Source of the DNA: Alphaproteobacteria bacterium
Lineage (GTDB): Bacteria > Pseudomonadota > Alphaproteobacteria > ATCC43930 > CGMCC-115725
Assembly: GCA_030037055.1 (NCBI GenBank)
Contig: JASHRZ010000457.1
Location: forward strand, 1-25,089
DNA: 25,089 nucleotides
Direction of reading: 5' to 3'
Shown: positions 10,828 through 18,488 of the stretch, one piece after another
Layout: every line of letters begins with the position of its first letter
Position numbering within the stretch: the stretch's first letter is position 1
The notes under the pieces: model-generated
Database searches by the model: none
Told to the model about the DNA's origin: nothing
Seen by the model: the letters and a program-made list of their open reading frames with translations, nothing else
Program-made: the position numbers and the translations under genes

Positions 10828-12039
10828 CTAACTCTTGCGCAGCGCCTTCGCCAGCCTGAGGCGCAGCGCATTCAGCTTGATGAAGCCCTCGGCGTCGCGC
10901 TGATTGTAGACCTCGTCCGCCTCGAAGGTGACATGCGCGAGGCTGTAGAGGCTCTTGGACGATTTGCGCCCGACGACGTGCGCGAGCCCCTTGTAGAGCT
11001 TGAGGCGCACCGTGCCCTCGACATTCTCCTGGCTCTTGTCGATTAGCGCCTGCAGCATCTCGCGCTCGGGCGTGAACCAGAAGCCGTAATAGATCAGCTC
11101 GGCATAGCGCGGCATCAGCTCGTCTTTGAGATGCGCCGCGCCGCGATCGAGCGTGATGCTTTCGATGCCGCGATGAGCGGCGTGCAGAATGGTGCCACCC
11201 GGTGTCTCGTAGACGCCGCGCGACTTCATGCCGACGAAGCGGTTCTCGACCAGATCGAGCCGGCCGATCCCGTGCTTGCCGCCAAGCTCGTTGACCCGCG
11301 CCAGCAGGCTCGCCGGCGACAGCGCGACGCCGTTGACCGCCACGGGATCGCCGCGCTTGAACTCGATCTCGACATATTCGGACTGATCCGGCGCCGCCTC
11401 GGGCGCCACTGTGCGGCTGTAGACCAGCTCCTCGGGCTCGCTCCAGGGATCCTCGAGCACTTTGCCTTCGGCCGAGATGTGCAGCAGATTGGCATCTGTC
11501 GAGAACGGTGCCTCGCCGCGCCTGTCGCGCGGGATCGGGATCTGGTGCCGTTCGGCATAGGCGATGAGCTTGGTCCGCGAGCCGAGATCCCATTCGCGCC
11601 AGGGCGCGATGACCTTGATGTCGGGCTTAAGCGCGTAATAGGCAAGCTCGAAGCGGACCTGGTCGTTGCCCTTGCCGGTGGCGCCATGCGCCACCGCGTC
11701 GGCGCCGACCGCCTCCGCGATCTCGATCTGGCGCTTGGCGATGAGCGGCCGGGCGATCGCGGTGCCGAGCAGATATTGCCCTTCATAAAGAGCGTTGGCG
11801 CGGAACACGGGGAAGACGAAGTCGCGCACGAACTCCTCGCGCAGATCGTCGACGAAGATCTCCTTCACCCCCATCATCTCCGCCTTCTTGCGCGCCGGCT
11901 CGAGCTCTTCGCCCTGGCCGATATCGGCGGTGAAGGTCACGACCTCGCAGCGATAGGTCTCCTGCAGCCAGCGGAGGATCACCGAGGTGTCGAGCCCGCC
12001 GGAATAAGCGAGCACGACCTTCTTCACCGAGCCGCTCAT
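10828..12039 (-). CDS. argG: Argininosuccinate synthase
   Basis: [88 protein letters not shown]. Confidence 0.99.
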
Positions 12040-12072
12040 GACGCGGGAGACCTTTCAAAAAACGTCGGGCGC

Positions 12073-12112
12073 GGGAGTATAAGTGACGGGCTGATGGCGG
12101 CAAGAGCGCGCG
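12073..12112 (+). repeat. Direct repeat copy A (promoter-containing), paired with 14392-14431
   Basis: gggagtataagtgacgggctgatggcggcaagagcgcgcg matches copy B at 33/40 positions without gaps. Confidence 0.8.
12076..12103 (-). promoter_or_regulatory. sigma70-type promoter for argG
   Basis: Minus strand reads cTTGCCG-N16-TATACT, about 37 nt upstream of the argG ATG. Confidence 0.6.
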
Positions 12113-12145
12113 CCGGAAGACCGGCAGGCAAGGCGGAGAACGGCG

Positions 12146-13489
12146 CTACTCGCCCGCCGCGGCCGGCGCCAGGGCGGCCTCCAGTGCGCGCTGACGGCGG
12201 CCGAGCCAAAGCCCGTTGGCAAGCCAGAGCGCGGCGACGCCGATCGCCACCACGGCCGCGCCGCGCGACGCCGGCCCGTTCAGCAGCGCCACCGACCAGG
12301 CACCGACTTGATCGCCAAGGCGGTAGACCACCGTGTCGATGAAGCCTTTAGTCTTGTAGCGGTCCTCGCGCGGCAGGACCGTGAACAGGACCTCCCGTGT
12401 TGGTCGCGTGATCGCATAGTCGCCGGCGCGCCGCGCTACCTGGAACACGGCGATCGCTGCCAGCGTCGGTGCCAGCGCCAGGGTGCCGAAGCCGATCATG
12501 GTGAGTGCCGGCAGGATGGCTAGCGCGAGGGGCACGCCGAGCGATAGGACGATGCGGCCGGTCAGGAACAGTTGAAAGACGAGCGCGAGCGTGTTGACGC
12601 TGAAATCGATGGTCGCGAAGAACGCCGTCTGCGCACCGCGGTCGGCGAAGCTGTGGCTGACGATTTCCGCTTGTTGGAAATAAACGAAGGTCGAAGTGAT
12701 GGCGTAAAGCAGCAGGAAGCCGCCGACATTCAGTAGGTAGGGCGAGCCGAGGGCATGGCTGACGCCGGCGACGACGGTGCCGCCGATCGGGCGTTCGGCG
12801 GCCTTTTCGCGCCGGTCCGTTTCCGGACGCCGGTGCAAGGCGGGCGATAGCCTGGCAAGGCGCCCGACGCTGAAGACCGCGACCTCCAGCAGCACCGCCG
12901 CGCCGATCAGCAGTGGCGTGGGTGGAACATAGCGCGCCAGGCTCGCGGTGATGGCGGCGCCGATGATCGCGCCGATCGTCGCCCCGGCCGCGACAAAGCC
13001 AAACAGCCGCTTGCCCTGCTCGGGGCTGAAGAGATCGACATTGAGCTGCCAGAACACCGAGACGACGAACAGGTTGTAGACCGAGATCCAGACAAAAAAG
13101 ATTCTGCCGATCCAGATCGTCTGCCCGGGGCCTGCCAAGGCGAGCGCGAGCGCGAACAGCAGAATGTTGGCGGCAAAGAAGCGGTAGGTGAGGGGAATGA
13201 AGCGGCTGCGCGGCAGCTTCTTGACGAGATAGGCGAAGGGCAGATTCAACAGGATCATGCTGCCGAGCGTGCCCGCGAACAGCCATTGAAGATTGTTGAC
13301 CCCGCCGGCGATGCCCATCTGGTCGCGGATCGGCCGCATGATGTAATAGGAGGAGAGAACCGCGAAGATATAGAGCCAGCACCAAAGCACGGCGCGCACC
13401 TCCTCGGGCTGCACCGCGACCACCCTCTGCAGCAGCCGATAGGCAAATGGATGCGCCGCAGGCGCGGGGGATGGATCGGTTTCGGTCAA
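12146..13489 (-). CDS. TLC/NTT (ATP:ADP antiporter, COG3202-like) family MFS-fold carrier homolog
   Basis: YYIMRPIRD, NLFVVSVFW...DLFSPEQGKRLFGFVAAGATIG, YAITRPTREVLF, RYKTKGFIDTVVYRLGD; about 12 hydrophobic segments; TTG start 19 nt downstream of the preceding stop. Confidence 0.85.
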   Translation of the reverse strand: MTETDPSPAPAAHPFAYRLLQRVVAVQPEEVRAVLWCWLYIFAVLSSYYIMRPIRDQMGIAGGVNNLQWLFAGTLGSMILLNLPFAYLVKKLPRSRFIPLTYRFFAANILLFALALALAGPGQTIWIGRIFFVWISVYNLFVVSVFWQLNVDLFSPEQGKRLFGFVAAGATIGAIIGAAITASLARYVPPTPLLIGAAVLLEVAVFSVGRLARLSPALHRRPETDRREKAAERPIGGTVVAGVSHALGSPYLLNVGGFLLLYAITSTFVYFQQAEIVSHSFADRGAQTAFFATIDFSVNTLALVFQLFLTGRIVLSLGVPLALAILPALTMIGFGTLALAPTLAAIAVFQVARRAGDYAITRPTREVLFTVLPREDRYKTKGFIDTVVYRLGDQVGAWSVALLNGPASRGAAVVAIGVAALWLANGLWLGRRQRALEAALAPAAAGE

Positions 13490-13508
13490 AGCCGGCCTGC
13501 GCCGTCGG

Positions 13509-14270
13509 TCATTTCAACGCGGCGGCGATCTGGCGGATCTCGGCCGCGCTATGCTCGCCGCCGAGCGGCGTTCCCGGCACGAGATACCTGCCCATGGGCA
13601 AGCCGCCGACGAGCACCGGCTCGAACCCGATCTCCTTGATCAGGTTCGTCGCCAAGGCGATGGCGCTCGGGTCGTCGCCGGCGATCGGCACGCCCACCGG
13701 TTCACCCCGGCGGTGAGCGTCGCTCGCCAAGCTCGTGGAGCTGATCGCATTGAACGCGCGCACCAGGCGGGCGCCGGGCAGCAATTTTGCCGTGGCGAGG
13801 CCGGCTCCGCCCTGCTCGGCGACCCATTTGACGATGTCGTCGCCGTCGCGTCGCGCGATCGGGTTGGAGACATCGAGCACGAGCGCCTTGGCGGCGAGCG
13901 CCTTGCCGTAATCCCGGCCGATCTGCTCGACCGCGGTATAGGGAACGACCAAGATCACGACATCGCCGAAGGCGACCGCCTGCTCGACCGTACCCGCCTG
14001 CGCCGACGGCCCGGCATTCGCGACAAGCTCCTTCAGCGCCTCCGGGTGGCGAGAGGAGAACATCACCTTGTGGCCCTCTTTGGCGAACAACGTGCCGAGC
14101 GCGCCACCCTCGCGTCCGGCGCCGATCGTGGCAATTCTGAGCGACACGATATCGGCGTTTTGCGCCGATGCGGTCCTCGGCCAGGCGGCAAAAATGCCTG
14201 CGGCCACGCCGAGGGAGCCAAGCTTCACGATTTCGCGACGGCTGAGCGCGGATGCCGGATCATTCGCCAT
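13509..14270 (-). CDS. NADPH-dependent F420-reductase-like (FNO/F420_oxidored) oxidoreductase with a twin-arginine signal peptide
   Basis: N-terminal LSRREIVKLGSLGVAAGIFAAWPRTASA|Q (RR motif, h-region, AxA site). Rossmann IGAGREGGALG, FSSRHPE, VILVVPY, DVSNP, LVRAFN, AGDD...GFEPV. AAAGGAGG RBS. Confidence 0.88.
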   Translation of the reverse strand: MANDPASALSRREIVKLGSLGVAAGIFAAWPRTASAQNADIVSLRIATIGAGREGGALGTLFAKEGHKVMFSSRHPEALKELVANAGPSAQAGTVEQAVAFGDVVILVVPYTAVEQIGRDYGKALAAKALVLDVSNPIARRDGDDIVKWVAEQGGAGLATAKLLPGARLVRAFNAISSTSLASDAHRRGEPVGVPIAGDDPSAIALATNLIKEIGFEPVLVGGLPMGRYLVPGTPLGGEHSAAEIRQIAAALK

Positions 14271-14391
14271 GACGGGCCTCCTTTACCGGTGAGTTCGTGC
14301 ACCATAGGGTGCTGCGGGAATCTCCACACCTCAGATTCGCTAGCGGCGGCACCGGCCGCGCACGAGACTTTACACATAAGGATGCTCGGGC

Positions 14392-14431
14392 GGGAGTATA
14401 GGTGACGGACGGTCGGCGGCAAGGGCGGGCG
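14392..14431 (+). repeat. Direct repeat copy B (promoter-containing), paired with 12073-12112
   Basis: gggagtataggtgacggacggtcggcggcaagggcgggcg; 33/40 identity to copy A; 2319 nt spacing. Confidence 0.8.
14395..14422 (-). promoter_or_regulatory. sigma70-type promoter for the Tat-oxidoreductase/NTT operon
   Basis: Minus strand cTTGCCG-N16-TATACT, with the same hexamers and spacing as the argG promoter. Confidence 0.55.
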
Positions 14432-14440
14432 TGCGGCCCG

Positions 14441-15280
14441 TTATCTCTTGCCCGTCTTGCGCCGCTCCTTCGGCATCAGCCGGTCGATCATCCGCCAGTA
14501 ATTGACCGGCATCAGCCAGCACAGCGCCGCCATCAGAAAGGCGTCGGGACCGATGAGGATGCGCTGCTCGTTGCGCTTTATGCCGCGCAAGATGCGCACC
14601 GCCGCCTGGTCGGGACGGGTGCGCGCCATCCGGTCGAAGAGTTTCACCACTTGCCCGCGCAGCGCCGGATCGGATCTCGCCGGCAGGCGCGCGTTGCGCA
14701 CGATGTTGGTGCGCACGCCGCCGGGATGGACGGTGGTGACGCGAATGCCGCTACCGGCGAGCTCGTGGCGCAGCGCCTCGCTGAAGCCGCGCACCGCGAA
14801 CTTGCTCGCGGCATAGGCGGTCTGCCCGGCCGGCGCGACGATGCCGTAGATGCTGGAGATGTTGACGATATGCGCCTGCCGGTTCTCCCGCAGCAGCGGC
14901 AGGAACAGCCTGGTGCCGTATACCACGCCCCAGAAATTTACGTCGATCAGCCAGCGCATGTCGTCCACCGACAGCTCTTCCAGCTCCCCGATCAGCGCCA
15001 CCCCGGCATTGTTGATCAAGAGCTGGACGTAGCGGTGCGCTTGTTTCACCTCCTCGCGGAACCGCATCATTGCCTCGAGATCGGCGACGTCGAGGGCGTG
15101 GGTCGAGACCGTGCCGGCGCCGGCTTTCTTTGCCTCGGCCGCGGTGTTGGCCACCGTGTGCGCGTCCTTGTCGGCGAGCGCCAGCGCGCATCCCTCGCGC
15201 GCCAGCGCCAGCGCCAGCGCCCGCCCGATGCCGCTTCCGGCGCCGGTGACGACCGCAACGGTATTCCTGCCAAGTCTCAT
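14441..15280 (-). CDS. Short-chain dehydrogenase/reductase (classical SDR)
   Basis: VVTGAGSGIG, LINNAGV, VNFWG, IVNISS, YAASK (YxxxK), VHPGGVRT. GGAG-rich RBS before ATG 15280. Confidence 0.95.
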   Translation of the reverse strand: MRLGRNTVAVVTGAGSGIGRALALALAREGCALALADKDAHTVANTAAEAKKAGAGTVSTHALDVADLEAMMRFREEVKQAHRYVQLLINNAGVALIGELEELSVDDMRWLIDVNFWGVVYGTRLFLPLLRENRQAHIVNISSIYGIVAPAGQTAYAASKFAVRGFSEALRHELAGSGIRVTTVHPGGVRTNIVRNARLPARSDPALRGQVVKLFDRMARTRPDQAAVRILRGIKRNEQRILIGPDAFLMAALCWLMPVNYWRMIDRLMPKERRKTGKR

Positions 15281-15381
15281 TTTCTCTCCCTCCGGTGCTG
15301 GTCGAGCGTAGCCTGCGTCCGCAACGAGATCGTCGAGCCACACCTCGCCCTTCCGCTACGCGAGCCGCTCCGCGGCTCTCT

Positions 15382-15428
15382 CCCTCTTCGCCCCGGGGGC
15401 GGACAGGGCCGCGGGTGGGGCGAGCCAC
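15382..15428 (+). repeat. Degenerate palindromic intergenic repeat (REP/MITE-like), copy 1
   Basis: ccctcttcgccccgggggcggacagggccgcgggtggggcgagccac aligns with 18543-18593. It is preceded by a perfect hairpin gagccgc-tcc-gcggctc (15362-15378). Confidence 0.6.
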
Positions 15429-15447
15429 CAATTTGTGATCATCGATC

Positions 15448-16346
15448 CTAAGGCGCTACGCGCCGGACGAACCCTGCCGCATCCTCGAGCGCGGCGCGGC
15501 CTTCGGGCAGGAAGGAGGCGAAGAACTGCCAGACATGCGGCAACTTGCGCCAGGCGCGGAACTCGACCGCGACGCCGGCCTGGCGCGCCTTTTCGGCGAG
15601 CCGCGTCGAATCATCGAGCAGCACCTCGCTGTCGCTTGCCTGGATGAAGAGCGGCGCAGTCCCGCGAGATCGGCATAAAGCGGCGAGGCCAGCGGATCGG
15701 TGGGCGGCGCCTCGCCGAGATAGATGCGCGCGCCCTCCGCGACGCGGTGGCCATGGAACATCGCGTCGCTGCGGTCGTTGCGGCGGAGGGAATCGCCGGT
15801 TGCGGCGAGATCGGTCCAGGGCGAGAACAGCACCGCGCCCGCCGGCAGCGGATCGCCCGCTTGGCGCAGCGACAGCAGCAGGGCAAGCGCGAGGCCGCCG
15901 CCGGCGCTGTCGCCGCCCAGCACGATGCGGCGCGCCGGCGTGCCGGCGGCGATGAGGCCGCGATAGGCACGCACCGCATCCTCGACCGCGGCGGGAAAGC
16001 GATGCTCCGGTGCCAGGCGATAGTCCGGCACGAAGGCGCGCGCCTCGGCGCCGGCAGCAAGTCCGACGGTGATGACGCGATGCGTCTTGGGCGAGCAGAA
16101 GTAATAGCCGCCGCCATGGAGGTAGAGCAGCGTGCGCGCCGTCTCGGCCGCGCCGCCCTCGCGCTCGATCCATTCGCCCGCGATCGGCGCCACCGCTTCG
16201 CGGATGCGCCAGCCCGGCGGCAGGCGCGGCGTCGTCGCCATCTTGGCTGCAAGCCGCCGCGCCGCGGCGACGTCGGGCGGGCCGCTGGAGCGGCGCTTCA
16301 CCCGATAGCGCAGCATCAGCGTCAGCACGACGTTCTGCCAGCTCAT
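15448..16346 (-). pseudogene. HSL/Aes-family alpha/beta hydrolase (esterase/lactonase) with a single -1 frameshift near 15656 (real or assembly error)
   Basis: LYLHGGGY, PDYRLAPEH.FPAA, GDSAGG nucleophile, LFSPWTDL, SPLYADL in one frame. PLFIQASDSEVLLDD...LPHVWQ (catalytic acid and His) follows in the next frame. CTG CGC CGC TC is one C short of L-P-P-L. Confidence 0.85.
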
Positions 16347-16359
16347 GGGCGCGCTTCGG

Positions 16360-17703
16360 CTAATAGACTGTGAGATCGGCGTTGGGCCAGGGGAGCGGCC
16401 CGTCGCCCGCGAGCGGCGGCGCCTCGCGGCGGATCTTGTGCCGCAGCCGGCGCTCCACTCGCGGCAGCAGGCGCGGCAGCAGCCGGCGCGCGCGCCGCAT
16501 TTGCCGGAGCGCCACCGCTGGATTGACGAGATGCGAAACCGGCGGTTTCTGCCCCATCGCCTGCAGCACGCGGCCGAGCGGCAGCTCCATCCGGTCTTGC
16601 AGCTCGACCATCATCGCCAGCAGCTCGGCGCCCTCGCTCAGCAGCGGCCCGAAGCCGTAGCGCGGCTGCATCGTGCCGATGATGTAGAGATGCCGATAGG
16701 CCGGCAGCAGCGCCCCGCCATAGACATGGGCGAGTCCGCCCGTCACCGGCACCAGCCCCTTCGGCAGGAAGGGGAAATCGACGTGATAGCCCGTGGCGCA
16801 GATCACGACGTCGTAGGCCTCGCTGGTGCCGTCGACGAAGGCGACGCGGCTGCCCTCGAAGCGGGCGACGTCCGCGCGCGGCGTGATGCGGCCGTGCTTC
16901 ACGTAATGCAGCAGCTCCGAGTTGATCGTCGGATGATGCTCGAAGATCTTGTGGTCGGGCAGCGGCAGCCCGTAGCGTCGGTAATCGCCAAACACCAGCT
17001 TGAGTGCGAAGCGCAACAGCAATCGCTGCAACGGCACCGGCAGCCACAGCGGCAGCGCCTCGACCAGCGGCTTGCCGAGGATGCTCTTGGGCAGAAACCA
17101 ATAGCCGCGTCGGAGGCTGAGGTCCGAGCGTGCGCCGACCCGCGCCGCCTCGCTTGCGATGTCGCAGGCGGAGTTGCCGCCGCCGATGACCAGCACGCGC
17201 TTTCCGGCGAGCTGCGCCGAAGCCTTGTAGTCCTTGGAATGAATGAAGGTGCCGGTGAAGGTGCCGGGGTAGTCGGGAAGGCGCTTCGACCAGTGATGGC
17301 CGTTGCACACCATCACGCCCTTGTAGACGCGCTGCTCGCCGCTGGCGAGCCCGACATCCCAAAGCTCGTCCCGGCGCGGCCGCGCCAGCACCACCTTTGT
17401 GTTGAACGCGATGGCGCCGCGCAGATCGAAATGCCGGGCATAGTCGCGGAGATAATCGATCATCTGCTGCCGGCTCGGGAAGTCCGGATAGTCCGCCGGC
17501 ATCGGGTATTCGGTGAATTCCGTCGTCTTGCGCGAAGAGATAATATGCGCGCTGGCATAAACGCCGTGATACCAATTGCCGCCGACATCGTCATCGGCCT
17601 CGAACTGGTCGTAGCCGATGCCGTGCGCCTTGAGCGCCTTGGCGACGCCGAGCCCGACCGGCCCGGCGCCGATCACCGCCATCCTGTCGCGACGATCCTC
17701 CAT
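16360..17703 (-). CDS. Flavin-containing monooxygenase (class B, FMO type)
   Basis: IGAGPVG (FAD), GGNW, FTGTFIHSKDYK (FMO fingerprint FxGxxxHxxxYK), IGGGNSACD (NADPH), CATGY. GGGAGG RBS. Confidence 0.94.
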   Translation of the reverse strand: MEDRRDRMAVIGAGPVGLGVAKALKAHGIGYDQFEADDDVGGNWYHGVYASAHIISSRKTTEFTEYPMPADYPDFPSRQQMIDYLRDYARHFDLRGAIAFNTKVVLARPRRDELWDVGLASGEQRVYKGVMVCNGHHWSKRLPDYPGTFTGTFIHSKDYKASAQLAGKRVLVIGGGNSACDIASEAARVGARSDLSLRRGYWFLPKSILGKPLVEALPLWLPVPLQRLLLRFALKLVFGDYRRYGLPLPDHKIFEHHPTINSELLHYVKHGRITPRADVARFEGSRVAFVDGTSEAYDVVICATGYHVDFPFLPKGLVPVTGGLAHVYGGALLPAYRHLYIIGTMQPRYGFGPLLSEGAELLAMMVELQDRMELPLGRVLQAMGQKPPVSHLVNPAVALRQMRRARRLLPRLLPRVERRLRHKIRREAPPLAGDGPLPWPNADLTVY

Positions 17704-17737
17704 CCGCCCTCCCGCGCCGCGTGGATCGCACCAGTTT

Positions 17738-17806
17738 TAGGCGACCTAGGCAACGCGTTGCGCGTCGGCTAGGGTGGTTCGCGGCCACTCTAGGGTAGGC
17801 CCCCTA
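17738..17806. promoter_or_regulatory. Candidate TetR operator sites in the divergent FMO/TetR promoter region
   Basis: TAGG-cga-CCTA (17738-17748), CTAGGGTGG-N7-CCACTCTAG (17769-17793) and TAGGG-N6-CCCTA (17791-17806); TAGG/CCTA half-sites are densely clustered. Confidence 0.4.
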
Positions 17807-17843
17807 TTTGTCAAACGGTATCTGCGTGAAGCGCGGTACGGCG

Positions 17844-18488
17844 GTGAAGACGCGGGACAGGATTTTGAAAGCGGCGCTCGGCCTGTTCAATGAGCGCGGC
17901 GAGGCCCATGTCTCGCTCGCGCAGATCGCCGGCAGGCTCGGCATCAGCGAAGGCAATCTCTGGTATCACTTCCGCGCCAAGCACGACCTCGTCTTGGCGC
18001 TCTTCGCCGAGCTCGAGGAGCGCATCGAGCGCACCCTCTCGCGCGAGCCGGCGTCGGCCGGCGCCGATCTCGCCTATTTCGGCGATTATGCGCGGCAGAG
18101 CTTCCGCGACATCTGGGAGTACCGTTTCCTTTATCGCCACCGCTTCGATCCCGACGCGGAAAGCGAGTTGGCGCAGCGCATCGCCGATCTCACCGAGCGC
18201 GCGCATCGCCGCACCGAGCGCATCCTCGCCGACATGGTGGCGCGCAGACTGCTCGCCGCCACCCCGCAGGAGATCTCCGAGCTCGCCGCCAATGCCTGGA
18301 TCATCTCGCGCTATTGGTTCGACTACTTGCAGGAGCGCCATGGCCTCGCCCGCATCACCGAGGCCGAGCTCCAGGCCGGCGTCAAACAGCTCTTCGCGCT
18401 CTACCGGCCTTATTTGACCGAGGCCGCCCGCGGCCAGATCGCCGCCGCCCACGAGACCGCGCCGAGGAAGAAGGCGGCGCGCGGCTAG
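17844..18488 (+). CDS. TetR/AcrR family transcriptional regulator
   Basis: KTRDRILKAALGLFNERGEAHVSLAQIAGRLGISEGNLWYHFRAKHDL helix-turn-helix. GTG 17844 chosen by analogy with the common MKTRDRIL start; GTG 17826 is an alternative. Confidence 0.93.
   Translation: MKTRDRILKAALGLFNERGEAHVSLAQIAGRLGISEGNLWYHFRAKHDLVLALFAELEERIERTLSREPASAGADLAYFGDYARQSFRDIWEYRFLYRHRFDPDAESELAQRIADLTERAHRRTERILADMVARRLLAATPQEISELAANAWIISRYWFDYLQERHGLARITEAELQAGVKQLFALYRPYLTEAARGQIAAAHETAPRKKAARG

Follow-up and report, generated by a model that had tools for sequence, protein, structure and literature searches.

The window analysed here, a 25,089-nt stretch of contig JASHRZ010000457.1 from a 4.66-Mb, 79% complete alphaproteobacterial metagenome-assembled genome (MAG) whose nearest named relatives are Stellaceae, contains a two-gene unit. 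It consists of an FNO-like oxidoreductase with a predicted twin-arginine translocation (Tat) signal and a carrier of the NTT (TLC) lineage. We found that such pairs make up a widespread, previously undescribed module, in which an NTT-lineage inner-membrane carrier is coupled to one or more NAD(P)(H) oxidoreductases with export signals, mostly of the Tat type. We prefer the reading, to which we give an even chance, that the carrier serves periplasmic reductases by passing NADP(H) through the inner membrane. DNA of the window was also found in peat-metagenome sequencing runs, with no RNA run among those listed.

The carrier is linked to NAD(P) enzymes with export signals

We compared 97 carrier loci: the one in the window, 16 found in 400 evenly sampled genomes of the class and the 80 that matched best among GTDB species genomes. 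This last set is biased to best matches and includes many Methylobacterium; it spans Alpha-, Beta- and Gammaproteobacteria, 'Deltaproteobacteria', Binatia, Rokubacteria, NC10, Acidobacteriota, Gemmatimonadota, Verrucomicrobiota and Vulcanimicrobiota. Together the loci come from more than 10 phyla. A gene for an NAD(P)-type enzyme lies beside the carrier at 92 of the 97 loci, with an export signal visible in nearly all, and at 90 loci the homologue within 2.5 kb is FNO-like, a Tat-signal aldo/keto reductase (AKR), a Tat-signal epimerase-type enzyme or a signal-bearing short-chain dehydrogenase/reductase (SDR). Within this distance the Tat-signal AKR is the only partner at 34 loci and stands together with an FNO-like gene at 26; the FNO-like gene alone, as in the window, is found at 21. 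Tat-signal epimerase-type extended SDRs account for six loci, the same type with an AKR for two and a classical SDR with a signal peptide for one. Seven loci have none of these partners: two of them carry an MDR/zinc-alcohol-dehydrogenase-type dehydrogenase (MDR, medium-chain dehydrogenase/reductase) directly upstream, one of these with a signal peptide, a third has a flank of only 630 nt and four are bare. The partners therefore belong to five unrelated NAD(P) families (FNO-like, AKR, extended SDR, classical SDR and MDR), and two or three of these folds occur together at some single loci. The Tat-signal epimerase-family partners come from Gemmatimonadota, Holophagae and Verrucomicrobiota.

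The carrier is more generally paired with the Tat-signal AKR than with the FNO-like protein. Judged by eye, AKR partners retain a D-Y-K-H-like catalytic set. The source genome, as far as assembled, holds no orthologue of the Tat-AKR, so the window represents a minimal, FNO-only form of the module. Where an FNO-like gene is present it is on the same strand as the carrier and upstream of it in 42 of 47 cases, usually within 0–140 nt; junctions among orthologous pairs range from −39 to about +40 nt, and several are 4-nt overlaps. Apart from the NAD(P) partners, no family recurred as a neighbour in more than nine of the 97 loci.

A twin-arginine (RR) motif is present in 40/46 FNO-like and 53/62 AKR partners, whereas about 6% of the other open reading frames (ORFs) at these loci were positive in a crude version of the same test. 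The linkage stands far above chance, and we rejected coincidence as its source. At least four partners have signal peptides that lack the RR pair and are Sec-type by eye (L119, L132, L143 and L137, the last from Yersinia frederiksenii). The pairing holds in all phyla represented, despite a sample whose loci are not independent. An earlier reading of this DNA from the sequence alone had asked for gene-neighbourhood statistics and had made its proposal depend, among other things, on conservation of the linkage across genomes, and the linkage is indeed conserved across many phyla.

Several individual loci deserve separate mention. In two Verrucomicrobiae loci (L135, 7524–8078; L145, 7484–8068) the gene immediately downstream of that for the carrier encodes a Tat-signal cupin, with matches to Cupin_2 and to Pfam TAT_signal; this is an exported-type partner without an NAD(P) fold. 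The locus of Y. frederiksenii ATCC 33641 (L137, 3253–7239) combines the carrier with an FNO-like gene bearing a Sec-type signal and a distant Tat-signal AKR, is adjoined by transposase-like ORFs and looks horizontally acquired. In an uncultured alphaproteobacterial MAG (L092, 5263–7362) the FNO-like ORF is in frame with the carrier and no stop codon separates them, giving a 699-aa ORF. Either the two are truly fused or the assembly is wrong here; a fusion would be topologically awkward if the NTT N-terminus is cytoplasmic. No other FNO–carrier fusion turned up: a search for longer FNO-like proteins gave four of 450–589 aa and none of about 700 aa, and we rejected open frames of 680 and 683 aa in genomes G634 and G759 as fusions, as their frame differs from that of the FNO gene.

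The oxidoreductase combines an NADP-type Rossmann domain with a predicted Tat signal

The oxidoreductase matches the Pfam family F420_oxidored (PF03807) with an E-value of 6.7e-16 (59.1 bits against a cut-off of 21.6). A profile built from 33 orthologues and searched against the Protein Data Bank (PDB) retrieved 4huj (2e-24), the oxidoreductase domain of STEAP3 (1.9e-22) and FNO (1e-20), and the enzyme aligns with the GSGDF...GSRNP stretch of STEAP3. In the alignment of the 33 carrier-linked orthologues, G50, G52 and G55 of the GxGxxG motif and R74 of the SSR motif are invariant, as is the twin-arginine pair of the N-terminus, while S73 is at least 90% conserved. The invariance of the RR pair, the motif glycines and R74 indicates that the export signal and the NADP site are both under selection.

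The N-terminus of the protein reads MANDPASALSRREIVKLGSLGVAAGIFAAWPRTASA, followed by Q after the predicted cleavage, and has the layout SRREIVK-LGSLGVAAGIFAAW-PRTASA before that Q. It thus has a motif resembling S/T-R-R-x-F-L-K, an uncharged h-region and an AxA cleavage site, as expected of a Tat signal. The TIGR01409 model (TAT_signal_seq) matched residues 9–36 with 17.2 bits against a cut-off of 16.7; Pfam TAT_signal (PF10518) gave no match on this N-terminus. TatC is encoded in the source genome. The FNO-like protein is accordingly predicted, by its signal, to be exported to the periplasm. A complex prediction for the carrier with the mature FNO-like domain, run with alignments for both, scored 0.00 and was not used as evidence either way.

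We rejected the assignment of the protein as a true F420 reductase, as it scored 51 bits with the npdG equivalog model TIGR01915 against a cut-off of 149.8. The database names 'F420 reductase' and '8-hydroxy-5-deazaflavin:NADPH oxidoreductase' are therefore over-annotations. The source genome encodes two further FNO-like paralogues, both without a signal peptide. One of them (contig C362 of the source genome, listed as L004; 381–1043) adjoins a radical-SAM gene (1057–2532) that by eye is FO-synthase-like, of the CofG/H or FbiC type. The source organism may therefore be able to make a deazaflavin and, given this FO-synthase-like gene, a deazaflavin could serve as the hydride partner of the exported enzyme.

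The carrier is a distant member of the NTT lineage

Taken alone, the carrier gives weak matches to Pfam TLC (PF03219, 24.1 bits against a cut-off of 21) and to the major facilitator superfamily (MFS) model MFS_1 (33.2 against 33.4). The PF03219 alignment is limited to residues 326–399, and no single stretch passes by itself; many carrier orthologues have a precomputed PF03219 match. A genome search with PF03219 found no match in any genome, the source genome included despite its carrier, and is accordingly uninformative. Comparison by profile was clearer. A profile of 15 carrier orthologues matched Chlamydia pneumoniae NTT1 (CpNTT1) over its full length (E = 9.2e-17) and Arabidopsis AtNTT1 (1.7e-12), both ATP/ADP translocators, with OxlT, the next solved MFS structure, at 1e-3. 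The TLC signature stretches YxxLRPxRD and RExxF...YKxKxxID align with NTT1 motifs, and R52, R55/D56, R161, R354, R365/E366, K379, K381, D385 and R390 of the carrier align with K/R/D/E residues of CpNTT1.

The AF2 model of the carrier (pLDDT 87.8, pTM 0.87) points the same way. In a Foldseek search of the PDB, ranks 1–5 were AtNTT1 and CpNTT1 (TM 0.59–0.75, E down to 2e-11), and other MFS structures started at 2e-7, about four orders of magnitude worse. Sequence and predicted fold place the carrier on a true, though remote, side branch of the NTT lineage, apart from the canonical ATP/ADP exchangers. We used the 447-aa form in preference to the 422-aa protein of the gene caller (P0121), as the shorter form loses a conserved N-terminal stretch. 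The family is large, with 3237 clusters at 50% identity (E ≤ 1e-30). Weak carrier matches (21–26% identity, E 1e-11 to 1e-18) were also seen in eight genomes of the same class, 0.9–2.3 Mb in size (G018, G022, G149, G175, G199, G256, G330 and G336). They are probably the canonical Tlc/NTT proteins of host-dependent alphaproteobacteria and illustrate the distance of the family from canonical NTTs.

The sequence-only reading had recognized a twin-arginine signal on an FNO-like Rossmann protein and, starting 19 nt downstream on the same strand, an NTT-family carrier. The profile matches and the coordinates bear it out, the carrier proving to be a remote homologue.

The association also appears from the side of the oxidoreductase

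We examined 57 metagenome loci of the FNO-like gene whose downstream flank measured 400 nt or more; about 22 have the carrier next to that gene. With only these linked, adjacency to the carrier is not obligatory for exported FNO-like genes. No recurrent partner was found next to the carrier-unlinked FNO-like genes, and hence no lead to a substrate. Whole genomes show the association strongly: of 11 other sampled genomes with an FNO-like orthologue (E ≤ 1e-35), ten, from five of six genera, also encode the carrier, against a base rate of 17/400 genomes in the class sample. In these ten genomes the carrier is adjacent to the FNO-like gene in seven, 3.3 kb away in one and on another contig in two.

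A proposed carrier of NADP(H) for periplasmic reductases

The data show directly the gene anatomy, the Tat motif, the conserved motifs for NADP binding, the relation of the carrier to NTTs in sequence and predicted fold, the linkage across phyla and the joint occurrence in genomes. Export of the enzyme, what the carrier transports and in which direction, and what the reductase acts on are inferred. The only characterized relatives of the carrier move ATP/ADP or other nucleotides, and one of them, PamNTT4 of Protochlamydia (NAD+/ADP), is a dinucleotide carrier (PMC5381601); NTTs work by counter-exchange. We propose that the carrier of the module would pass a pyridine dinucleotide, probably NADP(H), over the inner membrane, so that the exported FNO/STEAP-like enzyme could turn over. 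The simplest form would be counter-exchange as in known NTTs, with NADPH leaving and NADP+ entering. NADPH has one more negative charge, and the inside-negative membrane potential would favour its exit, by analogy with ATP4−/ADP3− exchange. Cofactor loading or salvage would be variants of the same idea. That the partners represent five unrelated NAD(P) folds, whose substrates presumably differ between families, favours a shared cofactor over a single substrate. Sec-type partners, moreover, must acquire their cofactor in the periplasm, since Sec substrates cross the membrane unfolded. In its widest form, the proposal is that many free-living Gram-negatives maintain a periplasmic NADP(H) pool or hand-off, in which an NTT-type antiporter driven by the membrane potential powers exported AKR, FNO-like, SDR and MDR reductases; this extension we put forward tentatively.

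Several observations weigh against a cofactor carrier. Proteins can pass through Tat with their NADP bound, the GFOR of Zymomonas being an example, which makes a carrier dispensable in principle. Free NADPH, which is acid-labile, might also escape from the periplasm of a peat organism or undergo hydrolysis there. The carrier is only 16–18% identical to characterized NTTs and reaches 34.6 bits with the NTP/NDP exchanger model TIGR00769, where the cut-off is 387.2; its substrate is therefore not transferable by homology. About 60% of the metagenome FNO-like loci have no carrier next door, and one sampled genome, G450, which has the weakest FNO-like match, lacks the carrier. The 80 best-match loci, with their many Methylobacterium, do not count as independent. 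Finally, AKR, SDR, MDR and FNO-like proteins are all hydride-transfer reductases and could be interchangeable catalysts for one substrate class, with the carrier moving the product.

This last point leads to the main rival explanation, that the carrier transports a substrate or product. The exported reductases would then share one kind of periplasmic substrate, such as a carbonyl, quinone or sugar derivative; the carrier would import the product or export a precursor, and the cofactor would arrive via Tat or be used in redox-neutral cycles. Enzyme-plus-transporter operons are the commonest cause of such linkage, AKR, SDR and MDR are classic isofunctional families of carbonyl reductases, and the use of Tat by most partners is compatible with cofactor hitch-hiking; the carrier is also too far from characterized NTTs for its substrate to be read from them. 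However, the module is not accompanied by any recurrent gene of cytoplasmic catabolism or biosynthesis, which leaves an imported product without a pathway. Five exported folds, at times two or three at one locus, suit a shared cofactor better, Sec-type partners could not bring a cofactor along and single-turnover enzymes would be wasteful. All the proteins closest to the carrier, in sequence as in fold, transport nucleotides. We consider transport of a substrate or product unlikely, although it is the strongest of the competing explanations.

A second alternative keeps the nucleotide and drops the reductase cycle: the carrier would only import NAD(P)+, ADP-ribose-type fragments or another nucleotide, and the exported Rossmann and AKR proteins would bind or process it. 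Extracellular nucleotides do occur in soil and peat, but MFS carriers normally work without soluble binding proteins, and the D-Y-K-H-like set of the AKRs (by eye) and the hydride-transfer motifs of the FNO-like proteins are kept, which argues for active enzymes. Characterized NTTs import nucleotides, PamNTT4 taking up NAD+ (PMC5381601), and such uptake would fit the option of recycling or salvage raised in the sequence-only reading. Even so, uptake alone appears improbable to us.

The central suggestion of that reading, a carrier serving a dinucleotide to a periplasmic reductase, stands in part. The linkage, the five folds and the NTT homology speak for it; the frequent occurrence of FNO-like genes away from the carrier speaks against it, and it relies on a predicted export and an inferred substrate.

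Anatomy and setting of the two-gene unit

The features of the unit are collected in table 1. The carrier has a TTG start, and the oxidoreductase gene ends in a TGA codon at 13511–13509. A promoter/terminator scan of the window found no terminator-like site between or after the two genes. As the 19-nt spacer holds none, they are probably co-transcribed, and their arrangement points to a single transcription unit. The promoter scan placed a sigma-70-like site, TTGCCG-16 nt-TATACT, at 14422..14395, within copy 2 of the 42-nt repeat and about 125 nt upstream of the oxidoreductase gene.

Table 1. Features of the oxidoreductase–carrier unit and its borders (positions in the window).
Feature	Position	Strand	Basis
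argG, downstream of the pair	10828–12039	−	
Promoter-like 42-nt direct repeat, copy 1, upstream of argG	12071..12112	−	promoter scan; repeat family D1
NTT/TLC-like MFS carrier, 447 aa, 12 long helices plus short ones	12146..13489	−	
Spacer of 19 nt between oxidoreductase and carrier genes	13490..13508	−	no terminator-like site seen in scan
Oxidoreductase gene, 253 aa	13509–14270	−	open reading frame
Mature FNO/STEAP-type NADP(H) Rossmann domain with GAGREGG (GxGxxG) and SSR (2′-phosphate motif)	13509..14162	−	PF03807, family profile
Predicted twin-arginine signal peptide, residues 1–36: SRREIVK, h-region LGSLGVAAGIFAAW, predicted cleavage between ASA and Q	14163..14270	−	TIGR01409 and RR conservation
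Shine–Dalgarno AAGGAGG, 6 nt ahead of the oxidoreductase ATG	14277..14283	−	read from sequence
Promoter-like 42-nt direct repeat, copy 2, upstream of the pair	14390..14431	−	promoter scan; repeat family D1

The two copies of the 42-nt repeat are 83% identical, bracket the two-gene module and are the only copies in the whole assembly. This suggests that a cassette inserted ahead of argG and that the argG promoter was duplicated in the process. None of the other 96 carrier loci has the argG or the SDR of the window as a neighbour. Bracketing repeats and neighbours unique to the window indicate that the two genes travel together, in keeping with the scattered occurrence of the module across phyla. 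In an empty-site comparison with three genomes of the same family, argG was present, the intergenic DNA was too diverged to trace the insertion and the SDR was not adjacent to argG. An incidental adjacency, in which a mobile two-gene cassette landed ahead of argG and its proteins are functionally unlinked, would agree with the bracketing element, the unshared neighbours and the patchy distribution, but is very hard to credit, since mobility as a unit itself argues for a functional link and the pairing is kept across phyla with tight or overlapping junctions.

The skew of the DNA changes over the module: at 12001–14000 the AT skew is +0.19 and +0.14 and the GC skew +0.07 and +0.02, while the flanks, including argG on the same strand, are mostly negative. 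The pattern is compatible with acquired foreign DNA as well as with the base composition of a gene for a membrane protein. Upstream of the pair lie genes for a signal-less, cytoplasmic SDR, an alpha/beta hydrolase (Abhydrolase_3) and an FMO-like flavin monooxygenase, all on the minus strand (14441–18488), with a divergent regulator at 17808–18488 that is TetR-like by eye. These genes could form a Baeyer–Villiger-type cluster for ketone or ester catabolism, and are not conserved with the module.

Relation to known systems and significance

NAD(P)H is, in the textbook view, confined to the cytoplasm. Cytoplasmic reducing power is known to reach the periplasm by DsbD/CcdA and MsrQ-type systems, through thiols or through haem or flavin in a membrane protein. 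These systems meet the same need as the module, whereas in our proposal the cofactor itself would move. Zymomonas mobilis glucose-fructose oxidoreductase (GFOR) and other Tat-exported Gfo/Idh/MocA enzymes resemble the module in being periplasmic NAD(P) enzymes exported in the folded state. GFOR, however, holds its NADP tightly in a redox-neutral ping-pong cycle, so that it can do without a supply of cofactor, and is not known to have a carrier partner. No Gfo/Idh/MocA partner was recognized among the recurrent neighbour clusters of the carrier loci, for which no specific search was made. The oxidoreductase of the window shares the PF03807 Rossmann family and the GxGxxG and S-R motifs with F420H2:NADP+ oxidoreductase (FNO) and with the N-terminal oxidoreductase domains of STEAP3 and STEAP4. 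To our knowledge, all characterized members of this group face the cytoplasm; the window enzyme, unlike them, carries a Tat signal.

The carrier resembles the NTT/TLC proteins (PF03219, TC 2.A.12; AtNTT1, CpNTT1 with PDB entries 9j3j–9j3o, and PamNTT4) in fold, full-length homology and TLC signature motifs. It differs in being about 50–140 residues shorter, at the 16–18% identity given above, in its genetic coupling to exported NAD(P) enzymes and in its hosts, which are free-living soil bacteria with full biosynthesis and not energy parasites or plastids. The proposed direction would also differ, from cytoplasm to periplasm in place of host to parasite. A survey of the family gives no function for the NTT homologues of free-living bacteria (PMC5381601), and full-text literature searches, this survey included, returned no published description of a pairing of an NTT-like carrier with exported NAD(P) enzymes, in agreement with the sequence-only reading, which knew of none.

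A related problem has been raised for the ceramide reductase CerR of Caulobacter, a periplasmic enzyme of the NDUFA9/epimerase type with a conserved NAD(P)H site, for which the source of reductant was stated to be an open problem (2023 preprint). By type, CerR is comparable to the Tat-signal epimerase-family partners of the carrier, although no carrier has been reported with CerR. The conserved coupling described here provides a concrete, testable candidate for the puzzle posed by such periplasmic enzymes with NAD(P)H sites, and the module may show how extracytoplasmic enzymes obtain their nicotinamide cofactor. It can be studied in cultured, tractable hosts, among them Methylobacterium spp., Bradyrhizobium sp. 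S69, Roseomonas and Y. frederiksenii ATCC 33641. If the proposal is true, the module would constitute a third, cofactor-based route for exporting reducing power, beside thiol relays and membrane electron chains, and a means of cofactor supply for periplasmic biocatalysis. The pairing is also the first functional lead for the many NTT homologues that free-living bacteria encode.

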